IMG/VR virus record: IMGVR_UViG_3300029245_000012
Length of the DNA stretch: 57,549 nt
Reading direction: 5' to 3' (one strand)
From: a virus
Shown: piece after piece, positions 31,266 through 50,755 of the stretch
Position numbering within the stretch: the first letter of the stretch is position 1
Layout of the letters: each line of letters begins with the position of its first letter
Made by a program: the position numbers and the translations under genes
The notes under the pieces: generated by a model
Told to the model about the DNA's origin: nothing
The model's database searches: none
The model's input: the letters and a program-made list of their open reading frames with translations, nothing else

Positions 31266-31303
31266 GTCAAGTAGATCTATCACAGTCAAGTAGATCTATC
31301 ACA
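31266..31303. repeat. exact 19-bp tandem duplication GTCAAGTAGATCTATCACA x2
   Basis: Read directly. Each unit contains the palindrome TAGATCTA. Confidence 0.9.
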
Positions 31304-31520
31304 CATTAATATAGCGATCCCCTTTTGTTTGCTTTGTGCCTTATATATATTGTACAATTTACAAGCTGTTTTGTGCCTTATATTTGTGTATTATTCCATC
31401 TTGTTTTGTGCCTTATATCGTAGTATCATTTAACCATAGCAAAGAGATAACAACCTTGACAATTCCACATGACAGACATTGACGACTTGCAAGGCAGAAA
31501 ATACAAAGGAGAATAAAAAA

Positions 31521-32822: not shown

Positions 32823-33390
32823 TTTCTGATCTTTGATAATATAATATTGCTATGTCGGCGCTTGTGTGCTATGCTGTTCATGTATAGCCTTATTAGCTGT
32901 ATATTTATATCTAATTGTGTGAATTGTTTGTGCAATTCTATGCAATTATATTGCCTATGGCGGTTTATTAATTGTGCCTGTCTGCTGCCGTTTCTGGTGG
33001 TTGATCTTGTCCGTTTTATATTGCTGTTGTATGAGCAAAAATAACAACGTGTTTATTTGCGTTTTAAGACTTTTCGAGTGTGTGGGCGTGTAAATCTACC
33101 AATAGTGGAACGCAAAACAACGCGTAAAGTTTAGCGCGGTGTCAATGGCATATTATAAGCCTTGTCGGTGGTATTCTTTTACCGTGTGGCTGGTCTCGGT
33201 TTGGGTTATGTCTTACTTTACCACGTTGAAGTGTTTCGATTCTGTTCAAAAATCTGAACAAAACTCGCATGAAATTGAGAAAAAGTTGAGAAAAAATTTT
33301 TTGACCGTCCGAAATTTTCAGAATTATTTGATAGGGGGGGTATACATTAATCCGAATATTTTTTTATAAGAATTTTTGAAAAATTAATTT

Positions 33391-41711: not shown

Positions 41712-42247
41712 AATTATTCACCACACTTCTATTGTATATTTAGGTTCTTAAACATAGCGCACATAACATCAACTACTATGCTGTTTCCGAATTGTTTATA
41801 CAACTGCGTATTGCTGTTGACTGCTGCCATTTTGTCAATATCTTCATCAGGTACACCCATCAGCCGTCCGCACTCTCTTGGTGTCAACTTTCTGATACGA
41901 TATTGGGGTTTTTCAAGCAATAAATTGTCTTTCTGCACACTCGTTAAGCAATTACTTGTGCCTTGTATATTCACCTCTAATCTCTGTTCTGTTGGACTTC
42001 CTACAGTTCTATCTAACGGATTATCGGGATTCCTGCCACGCATAGCAACTATCTGACTTTCGCACACTTTAATCTGTTGCGTACCGCCACCCTCAACCGT
42101 TGTAATGTTGGGACAAAGTGCGTTTTCGTCATATACTGTGTTTGACTGATGCTTGCCTGTGCCGTTATCCATAAATCCTAATTGTTTTGTTTCAAGAATT
42201 TTCGGCTCTTGATTACCGCCTTGCATTGTGCTCAATGTTGGACTGCA

Positions 42248-42256
42248 CCCCCCCCC
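42248..42256. repeat. C9/G9 homopolymer at MTase frame break
   Basis: One extra G would read RIYDVGGGCSPTLSTMQGG in frame with the last segment. Confidence 0.9.
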
Positions 42257-42373
42257 ACGTCATAAATTCGATTCGTGCTTTCAAATTTGCTTTCAAGAGA
42301 ACCAATTACTTTAACTTCACTCATTAAAACAACTCCTAAATCGTGTTTTTCCGCTTTGACACATCGGGAAATA

Positions 42374-42380
42374 CCCCCCC
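42374..42380. repeat. C7/G7 homopolymer at MTase frame break
   Basis: One fewer G joins ...QKGIIEGG to ISRCVKAEKHDLGVV. Confidence 0.85.
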
Positions 42381-42657
42381 TCGATAATGCCTTTCTGAAA
42401 ATTGTCTGAAACTTCTGTGTAGATACTTCCTATTACTTCCATTCAATTACTCCATTTCCATTCTGTTTGTTGCCGTAACCCTTATAATCTCTAGCCATAA
42501 GAGTGCAAGCAACATCAGTTTTTCTGTCTATTCTTATATTGTTCAACAACACAGTTTCCATCCGACCGCAAGTTGCTAATTCCAGCGTCATATCTCGCCT
42601 TGATACAGTTTGCAACTTCTCTTCTTCCTGGTTCACAGATTGTTCCGTCAACGCAAG

Positions 42658-42713
42658 TCTGCTCTGCTCTGCTCTGCTCTGCTCTGCTCTGCTCTGCTCT
42701 GCTCTGCTCTGCT
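42658..42713. repeat. pentanucleotide SSR (TCTGC/GCAGA) about 11 copies
   Basis: 56 nt. It encodes SRAEQ repeats in every minus-strand frame. Confidence 0.95.
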
Positions 42714-43187
42714 AGGGATTGTATCTGGTAATGTTCCATTGTCAATAAGCGTCTGAATAAGTTTCTGTGCTTTTTCGTTGTTAATGTAATACTTTTCATC
42801 TACATTATCCTCTAAGTAGTCTTTCAGACGTTTAGTGAGCGGTATAGGTTCTGGAAAATGGTAATTATATTCGCCTAAAAACGAAAACATGAAACATCGT
42901 TCTCTGTTCTGTGCAACTCCATAATTCTTAGCATTTAGATCTTGCCAGTAGTTCACATATCCCAAACTTTCAAGAAAATCCAACCACTTTCTAAAATCGG
43001 GCATATTGTCTTGACTATGGACTTGTGGTACATTTTCCATAAACAGTATCTGTGGCAGTTCTCCGTTGCTGTCTCTGATTTCAGTTAATATTCTTTCCAC
43101 TTCCCACAGCAAACCACTTCTTGTACCGCTACCTTTACTCATTCCCTTTTGCTTTCCAGCAACCGACAAATCGGTACAAGGAAACGA

Positions 43188-43207
43188 GTAAGTAAGTAAG
43201 TAAGTAA
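43188..43207. repeat. tetranucleotide SSR (GTAA/TTAC) x5 just upstream of the PC catalytic motif
   Basis: Encodes FTYLLTYSFPC. Confidence 0.9.
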
Positions 43208-43530
43208 ATGTTTTAGTGTCCGTAATGGCTAAATCCACAGCATGAACCTGTGTTATATCCATTGTTGGGAAATCCGTTCCATGTACTGCGTTATAACTTG
43301 CTATGGCATACTTATCGAACTCCACAACTCTGTAATGTTCAAAGTCTGCACCTATACGCTTTAATGCCATAGCCTGACTGCCATATCCAGCAAATAACTC
43401 TATAAGTCTGATAGGCTTAGTAATGCTGATAGGCTCTCGCAAATAATCAAAAATATTCATTTGTGACATTTTTATCACCAAAAGGAAACCTCGGTTTCAT
43501 GTGCGCACAACCTATTCCTTTCTTTGATTT

Positions 43531-44917: not shown

Positions 44918-45188
44918 CTCTCTTCACTATCTCGATCGCCTTTTGAATCGCACAATCTATGCAACCAACATCATCGAACTTGTTACATCCACCTTTTGAC
45001 ACTCTGCAAAAATAAAGACGTTGTGGATATATTATTTCTTCCAATTCTTCCACAACCTTATCCACATCATAAGTTGTTGGGTATTTATCCAGTAATAGTA
45101 ATACTGTATTTGTATTCAACAAAGTTCCGTTACTCAAAGTAACTGATTCCAAATCCTTTTTAAGCTTATCCGCATCAATTAGTCTCAT
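44901..45188 (-). CDS. hypothetical protein
   Basis: 95-aa ORF. Confidence 0.55.
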   Translation of the reverse strand: MRLIDADKLKKDLESVTLSNGTLLNTNTVLLLLDKYPTTYDVDKVVEELEEIIYPQRLYFCRVSKGGCNKFDDVGCIDCAIQKAIEIVKRGGKNE

Positions 45189-45372
45189 CGTTCACCCTCC
45201 TGTTCCATTCGACAATTACCTCGCTCAGTTTATGCCCTTTTGGGTAAGATTCTGCCGGTACAGGGCAATCCGGATTGTTGCACTTTACCATATACATCGC
45301 CCCACCGCTTGACCAGTGTTCGATTATAGGTTTTCTACCACAGAGTGGGCACGGTTTAAGTCCTTCATTCAA
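45175..45372 (-). CDS. Lar-family (restriction alleviation-like) zinc-ribbon protein
   Basis: CPLCG...VKCNNPDC...VEWNRR. Confidence 0.6.
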   Translation of the reverse strand: MNEGLKPCPLCGRKPIIEHWSSGGAMYMVKCNNPDCPVPAESYPKGHKLSEVIVEWNRRVNDETN

Positions 45373-45630: not shown

Positions 45631-45981
45631 TTAATATCTCCTATTCCACATCTTTATTACCTCAAGTCTTTTATCCGAGACTAATAATGCGTCCTTATCG
45701 CCATAGTTCTGAGGGACAAGCATAAGGTCGCCAAACTCGTCAATATTATAATATGAGCGACCTGTTGACTTTCTGCTTGTTCCACAGTTCACACATTTGA
45801 CCGCCCACGCTATCTCTAATTCGTGAGATGGGGCAGTTCCAATACTGTCCATGTTTTTATAAATTTCATGCGTTAATTTTGGCGGTTTCCCGCAAAACGG
45901 ACAGCATTTCAAGTCTAGTTTTTTGTATTTCTTCTCAGCGGCTCTTCTTCTCATGTCCTCTATACAGTCCTGTTCTGTCAT
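45631..45981 (-). CDS. Lar-family-like zinc-ribbon protein
   Basis: CCPFCGK...VKCVNCG...MWNRR. ATG after GTGAGGAA. Confidence 0.55.
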   Translation of the reverse strand: MTEQDCIEDMRRRAAEKKYKKLDLKCCPFCGKPPKLTHEIYKNMDSIGTAPSHELEIAWAVKCVNCGTSRKSTGRSYYNIDEFGDLMLVPQNYGDKDALLVSDKRLEVIKMWNRRY

Positions 45982-45982
45982 G

Positions 45983-46375
45983 TTATTCCTCACTTTCTAA
46001 TAACTCTTTATTGTTAAAAATGTTGCCGATAACTCCTATACCGTCTTGATAATCGTAAATATACTCTTTTTCAAATCTTCCATCTTCAAGTAATACATTA
46101 AAATAAAAACCTGCTTCACTTTCATTCCAACCAATGCATCCGCAGCATTTTTCAGTAAGGCAATTTACAACATCATTCTCCCAAATCAGCTTGCCGTTCT
46201 TGTCTTTTAAGCCTGTACATTGACAAAGGGTAGATACATCTACTTCAATCATATTAGGTACATCATTAGTCATACCCCAAAGAATATAGCCTTTTTCCCA
46301 TATCTGATAATAATAGCCCTGCACCCATTCCCCGTTATCAACTCTCTTTGCTTTAAATAAATATCTATCTTTCAT
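45983..46375 (-). CDS. YopX-family protein
   Basis: TGLKDKNGKLIWENDVV...GVIGNIFNNKELL. Confidence 0.8.
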   Translation of the reverse strand: MKDRYLFKAKRVDNGEWVQGYYYQIWEKGYILWGMTNDVPNMIEVDVSTLCQCTGLKDKNGKLIWENDVVNCLTEKCCGCIGWNESEAGFYFNVLLEDGRFEKEYIYDYQDGIGVIGNIFNNKELLESEE

Positions 46376-47989: not shown

Positions 47990-49205
<1,216 letters not shown>

Positions 49206-50065: not shown

Positions 50066-50755
50066 TTAAAATGGACATTCGTCCTTTGCTCTCAACTGCC
50101 ATTCCACTCCGGCTCTTGCAACGTCCACATTTGCGTTTTTAGCCACTTCACGTATTTCAGCAACCATTCTGTCGGCATTGCTTGTATCAATGCCCATATG
50201 GCACAATATGACGTTCTGTAGGCTATCTGTAGCATTCACCTTGACAAATTCCTTACAAGTGGTTAATTCACAGTGACCGAGTATCTTATGAGTGTAATTC
50301 GGAGCATCAGTATCAACCATATCTTTGATGTAATTACATTCAATTAACATATGATCGATATTTTGCTTTTTAAATGTAACCGGGCAATACTCAAAATCCG
50401 TCATGTACAACATTTTTTGCCCATCAATTTTGATCAAAAATCCGTAATTTGGAGTACCGTTGTGTGGGAGAGAAAAACAACGAATTGTAAACTCTCCCAT
50501 TTTTACCGCCTTACTAACAGATTCAAACGGTTTCCACACCGGTATACCCAATTTTTTCAAATCAACTGCTGCCTTGATATGATCTCCATGAATATGACTT
50601 AAAATGACACCAGCGACATCTTTAATGTTGTAATTAAGGCTTCTCTGTATATCTTTAATTGACACTCCGCAATCAAGGATAAGTGTTTGATTACTTGCAT
50701 TTGTGAGTAAATAGCAATTACCAATACTGCCAGTAGAAATGCATTTAAGTTTCAT
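50066..50755 (-). CDS. MBL-fold metallo-hydrolase
   Basis: SHIHGDH motif. Confidence 0.75.
   Translation of the reverse strand: MKLKCISTGSIGNCYLLTNASNQTLILDCGVSIKDIQRSLNYNIKDVAGVILSHIHGDHIKAAVDLKKLGIPVWKPFESVSKAVKMGEFTIRCFSLPHNGTPNYGFLIKIDGQKMLYMTDFEYCPVTFKKQNIDHMLIECNYIKDMVDTDAPNYTHKILGHCELTTCKEFVKVNATDSLQNVILCHMGIDTSNADRMVAEIREVAKNANVDVARAGVEWQLRAKDECPF

Follow-up and report, generated by a model that had tools for sequence, protein, structure and literature searches.

The 57,549-nt stretch of viral DNA recorded in IMG/VR as IMGVR_UViG_3300029245_000012 (hereinafter the window, meaning this entire stretch) contains, on the minus strand at 43481-41729, a C5-methyltransferase gene that falls into five pieces upon three-frame translation. 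Motifs I, IV (PC), VI (ENV), VIII (QxRxR), IX and X of the C5-methyltransferases are all present in the canonical order, spread over separate open reading frames (ORFs). Two matches to the Pfam family DNA_methylase (PF00145), at 42648-43481 (profile positions 2-227 of 324, E 6e-48) and at 41729-42235 (profile positions 269-322 of 324, E 6e-12), agree with an earlier reading of this DNA (hereinafter the original prediction) that assigned motifs I-VIII to the first of these segments and motifs IX-X to the second. Between motifs VIII and IX lies a variable region of about 300 codons, in which three-frame translation delineates 6-7 modules, referred to here as target recognition domains (TRDs), with cores of the CxPTL, NCIxAR or TLxARDYKG type. 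Every TRD-like peptide that had been quoted as alternating between two frames was reproduced, and the listed tracts, namely (GCAGA)11 at 42658-42712, an A5, a G7, a G9 and (TTAC)5, are where they had been placed.

The first piece, denoted alpha, is at present a truncated ORF of 277 amino acids (aa) (42648-43481; minus strand, as are all features of this gene) that holds motifs I-VIII (ELFAGYGS, SFPCTDLS, ENVP and AQNRER) along with the linker LIDNGTLPDTIPS, and ends with SRADLR and a stop directly past the (GCAGA)11 tract. This tract (the junction repeat) occupies the junction between the catalytic core and the recognition modules and encodes (SRAEQ)n in every frame. The (TTAC)5 tract (43187-43206) encodes the conserved TYLLTY just upstream of the catalytic PC motif. 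Past the junction repeat, frame A (42515-42657) encodes TRD1 (TCVDGTICEPGRREVANCIKARYDAGISNLRSDGNCVVEQYKNRQKN) up to a stop at 42515-42517, and frame B (42433-42657) crosses the TRD1 DNA, shifted by +1, and meets no stop there (LALTEQSVNQEEEKLQTVSRRDMTLELATCGRMETVLLNNIRIDRK) before it goes on into TRD2 (TDVACTLMARDYKGYGNKQNGNGVIEWK), which ends with a stop at 42433-42435; the A5 run (42519-42523) lies in the TRD1/TRD2 region.

The second gene, denoted beta, has a predicted translation start at 42440-42453, where GGAG (42453-42450) is followed by a 7-nt spacer and an ATG (42442-42440) that overlaps the frame-B stop (TAA, 42435-42433) by 10 nt. As it stands, the beta ORF (42317-42442; MEVIGSIYTEVSDNFQKGIIEGG...) is shortened to 41 aa, G-run 1 being out of frame: this G7 (42374-42380) sits inside TRD3, just before ISRCVKAEKHD, and would be in frame with 6 or 9 G. 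An open frame at 42232-42430 contains the remainder of TRD3 (ISRCVKAEKHDLGVVL) as well as TRD4's first half (MSEVKVIGSLESKFESTNRIYDVGGG), includes an internal GGAG-N8-ATG (42336-42322) and ends in AVQH and a stop, with G-run 2 likewise out of frame; this G9 (42248-42256) directly precedes the CSPTLSTMQGG core of TRD4 and is in frame with 7 or 10 G. The C-terminal ORF of 168 aa (41729-42235) comprises the remnant of the TRD4 core, TRD5 (LCPNITTVEGGGTQ), the segment AMRGRNP...SNCLTSVQKDN, motif IX (RKLTPRECGRLMG) as well as motif X (QFGNSIVV). The putative start of this ORF is a TTG that shares bases with the TGA ending the ORF before it (ATTGA), an arrangement that, speculatively, could permit translational coupling. 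All three tracts in the window are thus in non-productive frames, with alpha stopping past the repeat and both TRD3 and TRD4 broken, and the products possible in this state do not go beyond an alpha of 277 aa that has only the core and a short beta of 168 aa with TRD5-7 and motifs IX-X. Each tract is one slippage step away from a productive state: GCAGA from 11 to 10 copies for TRD2 or to 12 for TRD1, G7 to G6, and G9 to G10.

A search with the conceptually repaired protein yields thousands of relatives, many of them "truncated" proteins (320-346 aa) whose ends coincide with the two positions at which the pieces in the window terminate. The comparisons that follow involve about 90 related loci, which come from independent assemblies of phages and prophages of Lachnospiraceae; a search with the N-terminal domain (N-domain) returned 26 loci from GTDB genomes, mostly Lachnospiraceae and Roseburia metagenome-assembled genomes (MAGs), and 425 contigs in IMG/VR, of which the best 80 were kept. 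Both motif I and motif X are present in 83 loci, 5 of which have the gene as a single ORF, the other 78 being split. Almost every one of these 83 carries a repeat about 786 nt into the gene, directly past LIDNGTLP, that consists of GCAGA (2-11 copies) or ACAG (4-16 copies) units, rarely of GACAGGCA or ACAA, as well as a G-run, or two of them, near +1100 and +1230 nt. The original prediction proposed comparing tract lengths among related phages, and the ranges obtained are 2-16 copies for GCAGA/ACAG and 5-10 G for the G-runs; it also took the existence of relatives without tracts as evidence to the contrary, and a few such relatives do occur next to the tract-bearing majority (L024, L022, L025 and L039).

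The variation of these tracts is seen most directly in pairs of loci separated by only 0-5 substitutions over 1.7 kb, which differ in one to three tracts. One pair without any substitutions has 7 and 8 GCAGA copies, respectively (L010/L046), another has G7 and G6 (L062/L064), and in a pair with 3 substitutions all three tracts differ (L057/L066). Because tract length differs between near-identical genomes, the tracts must mutate faster than single bases. The original prediction listed five breaks and described the gene as fragmented at tracts; this is borne out for three of them (GCAGA, G7 and G9), which are length-variable between near-identical phages, and fails for the A5 run and the site near 42440. 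The (TTAC)5 tract does abut the PC motif as had been noticed, but shows no frame-shifting length variation: relatives have 5 copies, or 4 or 3 through substitution, and the N-domain is always in frame. Given this stable copy number in relatives with an intact N-domain, (TTAC)5 was rejected as a fourth switch. A different kind of tract is found in Lachnospiraceae UBA3282 (L023, 69% N-domain identity), where a G11 homopolymer about 794 nt into the gene, at the core/TRD junction, stands in place of the tetra- or pentanucleotide repeat, which implies that a slippery tract at this position arose or was replaced several times.

Whatever the repeat unit, the three frames past the junction repeat have the same three outcomes in all relatives. 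Frame C, the state of the window, gives (A/T)DLR and then stops, at codon 3 in every one of the 71 loci. Frame A gives TCVDGT...REVANCIKARYD.GISNLRSDGN.VV.., that is, TRD1 followed by a stop, and frame B gives LALTEQS...QTCG.METWLL.., the TRD1 DNA read one frame on, followed by TRD2 (T[LM]xARDYKG...NGVIEWK) and a stop. Across 71 loci the median open length of frame B is 77 codons, and it reaches a TRD core in almost all of them; at least 49 distinct sequences have it open. In control coding DNA (these genes and the window), 0.4-5% of the 47-codon windows in the +1 frame are stop-free. In 56 of 57 loci, the frame of TRD2 is one ahead of that of TRD1. The rarity of such open frames in control DNA, the openness of frame B in at least 49 sequences and the nearly invariant offset jointly indicate that this layout is maintained rather than accidental. 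The "-1" change at the A5 run in the original prediction, at a site that is invariant in relatives, thus corresponds to a conserved frame offset, that is, an overlap of two recognition modules and not a lesion.

The outcomes are distributed across the 63 complete loci with a tract as 18 in the OFF frame, 19 in the TRD1 frame and 26 in the TRD2 frame, a distribution indistinguishable from equal thirds (p = 0.40). In the window lineage, GCAGA copy numbers that leave a remainder of 2 upon division by 3 (11, 8, 2) are OFF, those divisible by 3 (9, 3) give TRD1, and those with a remainder of 1 (10, 7) give TRD2. The TRD1 frame is joined to the N-domain in L003, P0003 and P0012, and frame B is joined to it in P0024, P0038, P0041 and L009-L013. 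Modules of both kinds are also found in frame within intact, single-ORF relatives, TRD1-like ones in Dulem virus 39 and P0018, and TRD2-like ones in P0004 and L099.

The boundary between alpha and beta is equally conserved. In 61 of 63 loci, the frame-B ORF ends in NGVIEWK(N) and a stop within the junction AATGGAGTRATTGAATGGAA; in this junction, a GGAG-N7-ATG places an ATG that overlaps the alpha stop by 7-13 nt, again in 61 of 63. The next ORF begins with MEVIGSIYTE... or MEKLTDAIG..., and in 20 of 63 loci it runs from the junction ATG as far as motif X. A clean pair is seen in L012, with an alpha of 341 aa and a beta of 143 aa that has two TRDs and motifs IX-X. Clean pairs also exist in L024, L022, L025 and L039, where the split is kept without the tracts, and both the split and the three-frame layout are kept at 69-80% N-domain identity in L018 (a Roseburia MAG) and L021 (a sheep-colon Lachnospiraceae MAG). 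The conservation of the junction, combined with the persistence of the split in tract-free relatives, leads us to conclude that the native form is a two-gene enzyme and not the single ORF that the original prediction sought to restore. The break near 42440, for which a "+1" change had been postulated and which is invariant in relatives, is on this comparison a conserved gene boundary with overlapping stop and start, rather than a lesion.

The two G-runs are located in glycine codons just before TRD cores, run 1 in the context IIEGG-ISRCVKAE or VLRGG-ICPTLRAN and run 2 in the context YDVGG-CSPTLSTMQGG. Their lengths vary between 5 and 10 within identical 12-nt flanks, and the in-frame status tracks length exactly. 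Equivalents of run 1 in relatives have 5-9 G within identical flanks; in the commonest context of run 2, G7 is in frame (8 loci), with G6 (4), G8 (2) and G9 (1) out of frame, and altogether about 40-50% of the G-tracts are in frame. Among the out-of-frame alleles of run 2, G6 or G9 (15) outnumber G8 (7), a bias towards the TTG-restart frame that is not significant. The TRD3 module is contiguous in P0018 (...GIIKSGISRCVKAEKHD...) and in L017, and P0001 and P0010 are contiguous across the run 2 site. The TRD modules themselves are shuffled among relatives, yielding enzymes of 409-600 aa. We also noticed a dead variant of the gene (L204, L205 and L207; about 3290-4440 in L204) that lost motifs IV-VIII by a deletion starting at the TTAC tract (TYLLT joined to INNPQQREVANCI...). 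In the three samples from which it comes, the G-run of this variant measures 9, 10 and 8, respectively, and the fact that it still varies in a dead gene indicates that the G-run variation is driven by mutation.

Could the fragmentation be an artefact, or could a single ORF be restored during expression? The exact 168-aa C-terminal ORF is found on 10 public contigs that come from different samples and assemblers, and all seven matching contigs that were aligned with the window show the same fragmentation. There are no substitutions over about 1 kb downstream of the GCAGA repeat, and the aligned contigs of this lineage differ at two tracts alone, the junction repeat having 11 copies in the window and L002 vs 9 in L003 and L006, and G-run 2 having 9 G in the window, L002 and L007 vs 6 G in five contigs; the G7 and A5 runs and the site near 42440 are identical in every lineage contig that covers them. 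The 9-copy allele joins the N-domain to ANCIKARYD..., the TRD1 frame, in agreement with the frameshift arithmetic of the original prediction. Exact-pattern scans for the G-run 1 context of the window lineage produced no matches in IMG/VR and the JGI metagenomes, so the tract alleles of this lineage are known only from ENA and Logan contigs; one sample with the genotype of the window is ERR589738. A nucleotide search of GenBank phages identified no close cultured relative, the sole matches being Dulem virus 39 (lemur gut, 72% identical, with an intact 527-aa enzyme) and weak ones in Streptococcus phages.

Homopolymers and repeats are classic sites of both error and slippage, and many contigs end at the repeats, so errors of sequencing or assembly have to be considered as an explanation, as does restoration of a single ORF through ribosomal frameshifting or slippage in transcription. 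We deem this explanation, in either form, exceedingly improbable. Identical breaks recur in more than 80 assemblies produced by different assemblers, copy numbers differ by up to 12 units, and long genes in the window are intact, for example a 590-aa ORF that contains an A8 run. Sequencing error, which the original prediction named among the outcomes that would refute it, can be discarded as the cause, given that tract lengths differ between near-identical phages and the breaks are present in many assemblies. With regard to recoding, the two breaks outside the tracts share no slippery site. The sequences at the end of TRD1 and the junction with TRD2 vary between lineages (QYKNRQKN, GYGRDGRKTD or KQSSNAD, each followed by a stop), and the A5 run is confined to the window lineage; a conserved slippery site with a stimulator, as expected of a programmed frameshift, was not found at the junction. 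A +1 ribosomal slip on AAA-AAC that would join TRD1 to TRD2 was considered and rejected because the site is not conserved.

As a separate observation, many public contigs end at the repeat or shortly beyond it (L068, L073, L126, L141, L143, L144, L150 and others). These contingency tracts are recurrent assembly breakpoints in gut virome data, and contig ends at or near the repeat hint, in an only suggestive manner, at length heterogeneity within populations.

Across 67 loci, codon position 3 exceeds positions 1-2 in nucleotide diversity by a factor of 5.2-5.7 in the N-domain and of 6.2 in motifs IX-X, and the segments that flank each G-run show coding periodicity in their own frames. The excess at position 3 in both catalytic halves is indicative of strong purifying selection that keeps the gene functional across the family. 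Of the two readings offered by the original prediction, a contingency locus or a decaying gene, the polymorphism of the tracts favours the first, and purifying selection speaks against the second for the family as a whole. The enzyme is, furthermore, judged by its sequence of the multispecific kind as had been predicted: besides the multi-module variable region, the conceptual protein aligns over its full length with M.rho11sI (BLASTP, 27% identity, E 3e-45), and tblastn matches to rho11s and H2 have E values of about 2e-20. The 168-aa ORF aligns with the recognition modules and motifs IX-X of the rho11s enzyme, TRD4 (RIYDVGGGCSPTLSTMQGGNQEPKI) matches RVYSPDGVSPTLTTMGEGHREPKI, and both TRD4 and TRD5 are aligned with recognition modules of rho11s.

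The locus is a contingency locus, not an assembly error or a case of plain decay. In the fuller form of this conclusion, which we regard as probable, it encodes a two-gene multispecific C5-methyltransferase of a temperate phage of gut Lachnospiraceae, the TRD content of which is set by the tracts. Several observations weigh against it. The related loci are phylogenetically related consensus assemblies, so that the counts given above are descriptive and do not represent independent trials. In the window lineage, each of the six contigs that span G-run 1 has G7 there; the 9 and 6 G of G-run 2 in this lineage amount to one shared, non-productive frame; and an open beta was not seen in any contig of the window lineage, which could therefore be stuck in the off state. 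Finally, the codon-position ratio falls to 2.0 in the overlap of TRD1 and frame B, a value compatible with dual coding, but also with TRDs that are read in a single frame under relaxed or diversifying selection.

The same facts raise the possibility that, the family-wide switch being real, the copy in the window lineage is a decaying pseudogene: all its tracts are off, run 1 is 7 and run 2 is 9 or 6, out of frame, in all contigs of the lineage, an interruption is present in G-run 1 (GAGGGGGGG), and one relative is clearly dead, with motifs IV-VIII deleted and a G-run of still 8, 9 or 10. This, however, appears rather improbable to us, considering that no substitutions, stops or deletions are present outside the tracts in any of the pieces, that each state is one slippage step from a productive frame, and that the junction repeat does switch to the TRD1 frame within the lineage (L003, L006). 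Moreover, other lineages have all-off combinations too, roughly as often as three switches acting independently would produce them, and both the N- and C-terminal domains evolve under purifying selection across the family.

How might a contingency locus of this kind operate? Tract polymorphism that outpaces substitutions, the three-frame outcomes, the alpha/beta junction, selection on both halves and the homology of the modules are computed directly from the sequences; the activity of the enzyme and the switching of its specificity we infer from them. In the proposed mechanism, alpha, with motifs I-VIII, would end in a coding repeat, (GCAGA)n here and (ACAG)n in relatives, the length of which would steer the ribosome to an immediate stop, to TRD1, or through a linker encoded by the TRD1 DNA to TRD2. 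Beta would start at the ATG that overlaps the alpha stop and contribute further TRDs along with motifs IX-X, and the two poly-G runs within it, each before a TRD core, would keep or break TRD3 and TRD4. Tract lengths would change quickly and reversibly by replication slippage, presumably slipped-strand mispairing; alpha and beta might assemble non-covalently, by analogy with M.AquI; and if each TRD recognizes one target sequence, the tract states would define the methylated sequences and could hedge against host restriction enzymes as well as methyl-dependent restriction.

Taken one step further, this mechanism would amount to combinatorial methylation, a possibility that we put forward tentatively, as slightly less probable than its negation. 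The repeat would attach none of the modules, TRD1 or TRD2, and the poly-G runs would toggle TRD3 and TRD4, resulting in about a dozen heritable, reversible 5-methylcytosine (5mC) specificity sets, with a second repeat-switched modification gene alongside. Such a repertoire would hedge against both classical and methyl-dependent restriction, and could also vary the epigenome of the lysogen. A simpler alternative holds that the gene undergoes plain ON/OFF phase variation, with the TRD1/TRD2 overlap and the alpha/beta split being inherited quirks that leave the specificity unchanged. The known phase-variable C5-methyltransferases are ON/OFF, for example the Mycoplasma CpG enzyme with a poly(G) of 6-11 (PMC9465063), and the PAPS-reductase-like tract gene of the window, discussed below, acts as a simple one-third-ON switch. 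Nevertheless, we consider this alternative unlikely: two of the three frames past the junction repeat lead to different conserved TRD-like modules, both of which intact relatives carry in frame, at least 49 distinct sequences have frame B open, and the G-runs are inside individual modules and not near the gene start.

The concentration of tracts in the methyltransferase gene is apparent already within the window. Two of the three G/C runs of at least 7 in these 57.5 kb (38.8% G+C), and two of the three repeats with 4-5 nt units, are inside this 1.75-kb gene; C7 matches number 5, compared with 1.4 +/- 1.5 in shuffled sequence. Runs of A8/T8 are found at 13647, 23345 and 46778. The third G/C run, a G7 on the plus strand (33334-33340), is apparently intergenic; it lies immediately downstream of short ORFs on the minus strand, where the DNA is AT-rich. 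In a region poor in ORFs, the window also has a perfect 19-bp direct repeat in 2 copies (31266-31303) and a 35-bp repeat in 2.4 copies with 80% identity (31333-31418), which could be an origin, an operator or an attachment-related element.

The third repeat with a short unit is a perfect (ACAG)14 (48754-48809) that splits a PAPS-reductase-like (PP-loop) gene of PHROG 424 (47990-49205, minus strand) into ORFs of 184 aa and 303 aa, which the loss of one copy would fuse. The statement in the original prediction that long genes elsewhere in the window are intact holds for ORFs such as the 590-aa one, but missed this second split gene. Its tract has 3-17 copies in 74 scorable related loci, with 22 intact and 38 split genes (37% open), as expected for a tetranucleotide switch; the remaining 14 contigs break off soon after the gene start, 260-460 nt beyond the PP-loop motif, with an ACAG tract of 13-15 copies on 12 of them. 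In many relatives, ACAG is also the unit that stands in the place of GCAGA at the methyltransferase junction. We suspect that the PAPS-reductase-like gene has a role in DNA modification. Near the methyltransferase, the minus strand also encodes two proteins with Lar-like restriction-alleviation domains (45175-45372 and 45631-45993) and a metallo-beta-lactamase-fold protein (50066-50755), the gene for which in the matching contig L002 also matches the anti-Pycsar Apyc1 family, and a serine recombinase gene is nearby as well. The neighbourhood looks like one of anti-restriction and anti-defence genes.

Confirmation of the proposed mechanism would mean that the temperate phages infecting a dominant group of gut bacteria diversify their own DNA modification by programmed hypermutation, with overlapping frames turning a simple repeat into a three-way selector of recognition modules. 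Phase variation is best known from bacterial pathogens, and its link to the phage side of the restriction arms race would be established in that case. Such loci are routinely annotated as broken genes, 78 of the 83 relatives looking split, and assemblies often break at the repeats, so that the function of the gene is systematically missed. In addition, the locus provides a natural and readily testable example of putative dual coding in DNA, and of a split methyltransferase whose specificity would be modular. Methyltransferases split in this manner are already the subject of engineering for targeted methylation.

Phase-variable methyltransferases, multispecific phage C5-methyltransferases and two-subunit C5-methyltransferases are each already known; a literature search yielded no description of a split multispecific phage C5-methyltransferase with overlapping TRDs chosen by a repeat and further TRDs gated by poly-G. 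The closest relatives in terms of enzyme kind are the C5-methyltransferases of the Bacillus phages SPR, phi3T, rho11s and H2, which likewise combine one catalytic core with a long variable region of tandem recognition modules and, similarly, are phage-borne and presumably serve in anti-restriction. These, however, are single polypeptides with a fixed set of modules, whereas the locus described here consists of two genes, with two frame-overlapping modules and three hypermutable tracts that would gate the modules.

With respect to gene layout, the precedent is M.AquI, in which the large subunit carries motifs I-VIII together with a portion of the variable region, and the small one carries the remainder and motifs IX-X (PMC3404938). 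Separated fragments of monomeric C5-methyltransferases are capable of complementation when the cut lies in the variable region, as is the case for M.BspRI, M.HhaI and M.SssI (PMC3404938). The alpha and beta genes of the phage, with motifs I-VIII and IX-X, respectively, and the break in the variable region, follow the M.AquI arrangement, but M.AquI has a single specificity and no repeats; the likeness considered here is one of gene layout. The alpha/beta annotation in Streptococcus phage MM1 was examined as a candidate for the same layout and rejected, being of the nested EcoHK31I type. In a Streptococcus prophage, Javan129 (L122; MK448675.1, 13752-14982), a C5-methyltransferase is annotated as genes of 248 aa and 128 aa separated by a 97-nt gap, and split C5-methyltransferases may be common in temperate phages of Firmicutes.

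The switching itself has its best-studied counterparts in bacteria. In the Type III mod and Type I hsd phasevarions, as outlined in one source, changes in the length of an intragenic tract shift the frame, and methylation varies within a clone (PMC7383803); the CpG C5-methyltransferase of Mycoplasma is phase-variable through a mid-gene poly(G) of 6-11 (PMC9465063). The phage gene resembles these bacterial genes in that the length of an intragenic repeat or poly-G shifts the frame. The bacterial cases, however, are chromosomal host genes, usually with one tract per gene and an ON/OFF outcome, whereas the phage gene has three tracts, one of which picks between two recognition modules or none.

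Among phages, contingency loci have been described in T2 agt and T4 rIIA, and poly-G tracts in Campylobacter and PB1-like phages (PMC12633550); the 2025 preprint on the homopolymer contingency loci of T2 and T4 claims that none had been reported in phages earlier (PMC12633550). Those loci and the present one share hypermutable tracts in phage genes that can be read as bet-hedging against host defence. The T2/T4-type loci, however, are short homopolymers (at least 6 bases) in lytic coliphages that cause simple loss and regain of function, whereas the locus considered here combines long tetra- and pentanucleotide repeats with G-runs, belongs to temperate gut phages, and subjects a DNA-modification enzyme to a three-frame readout.

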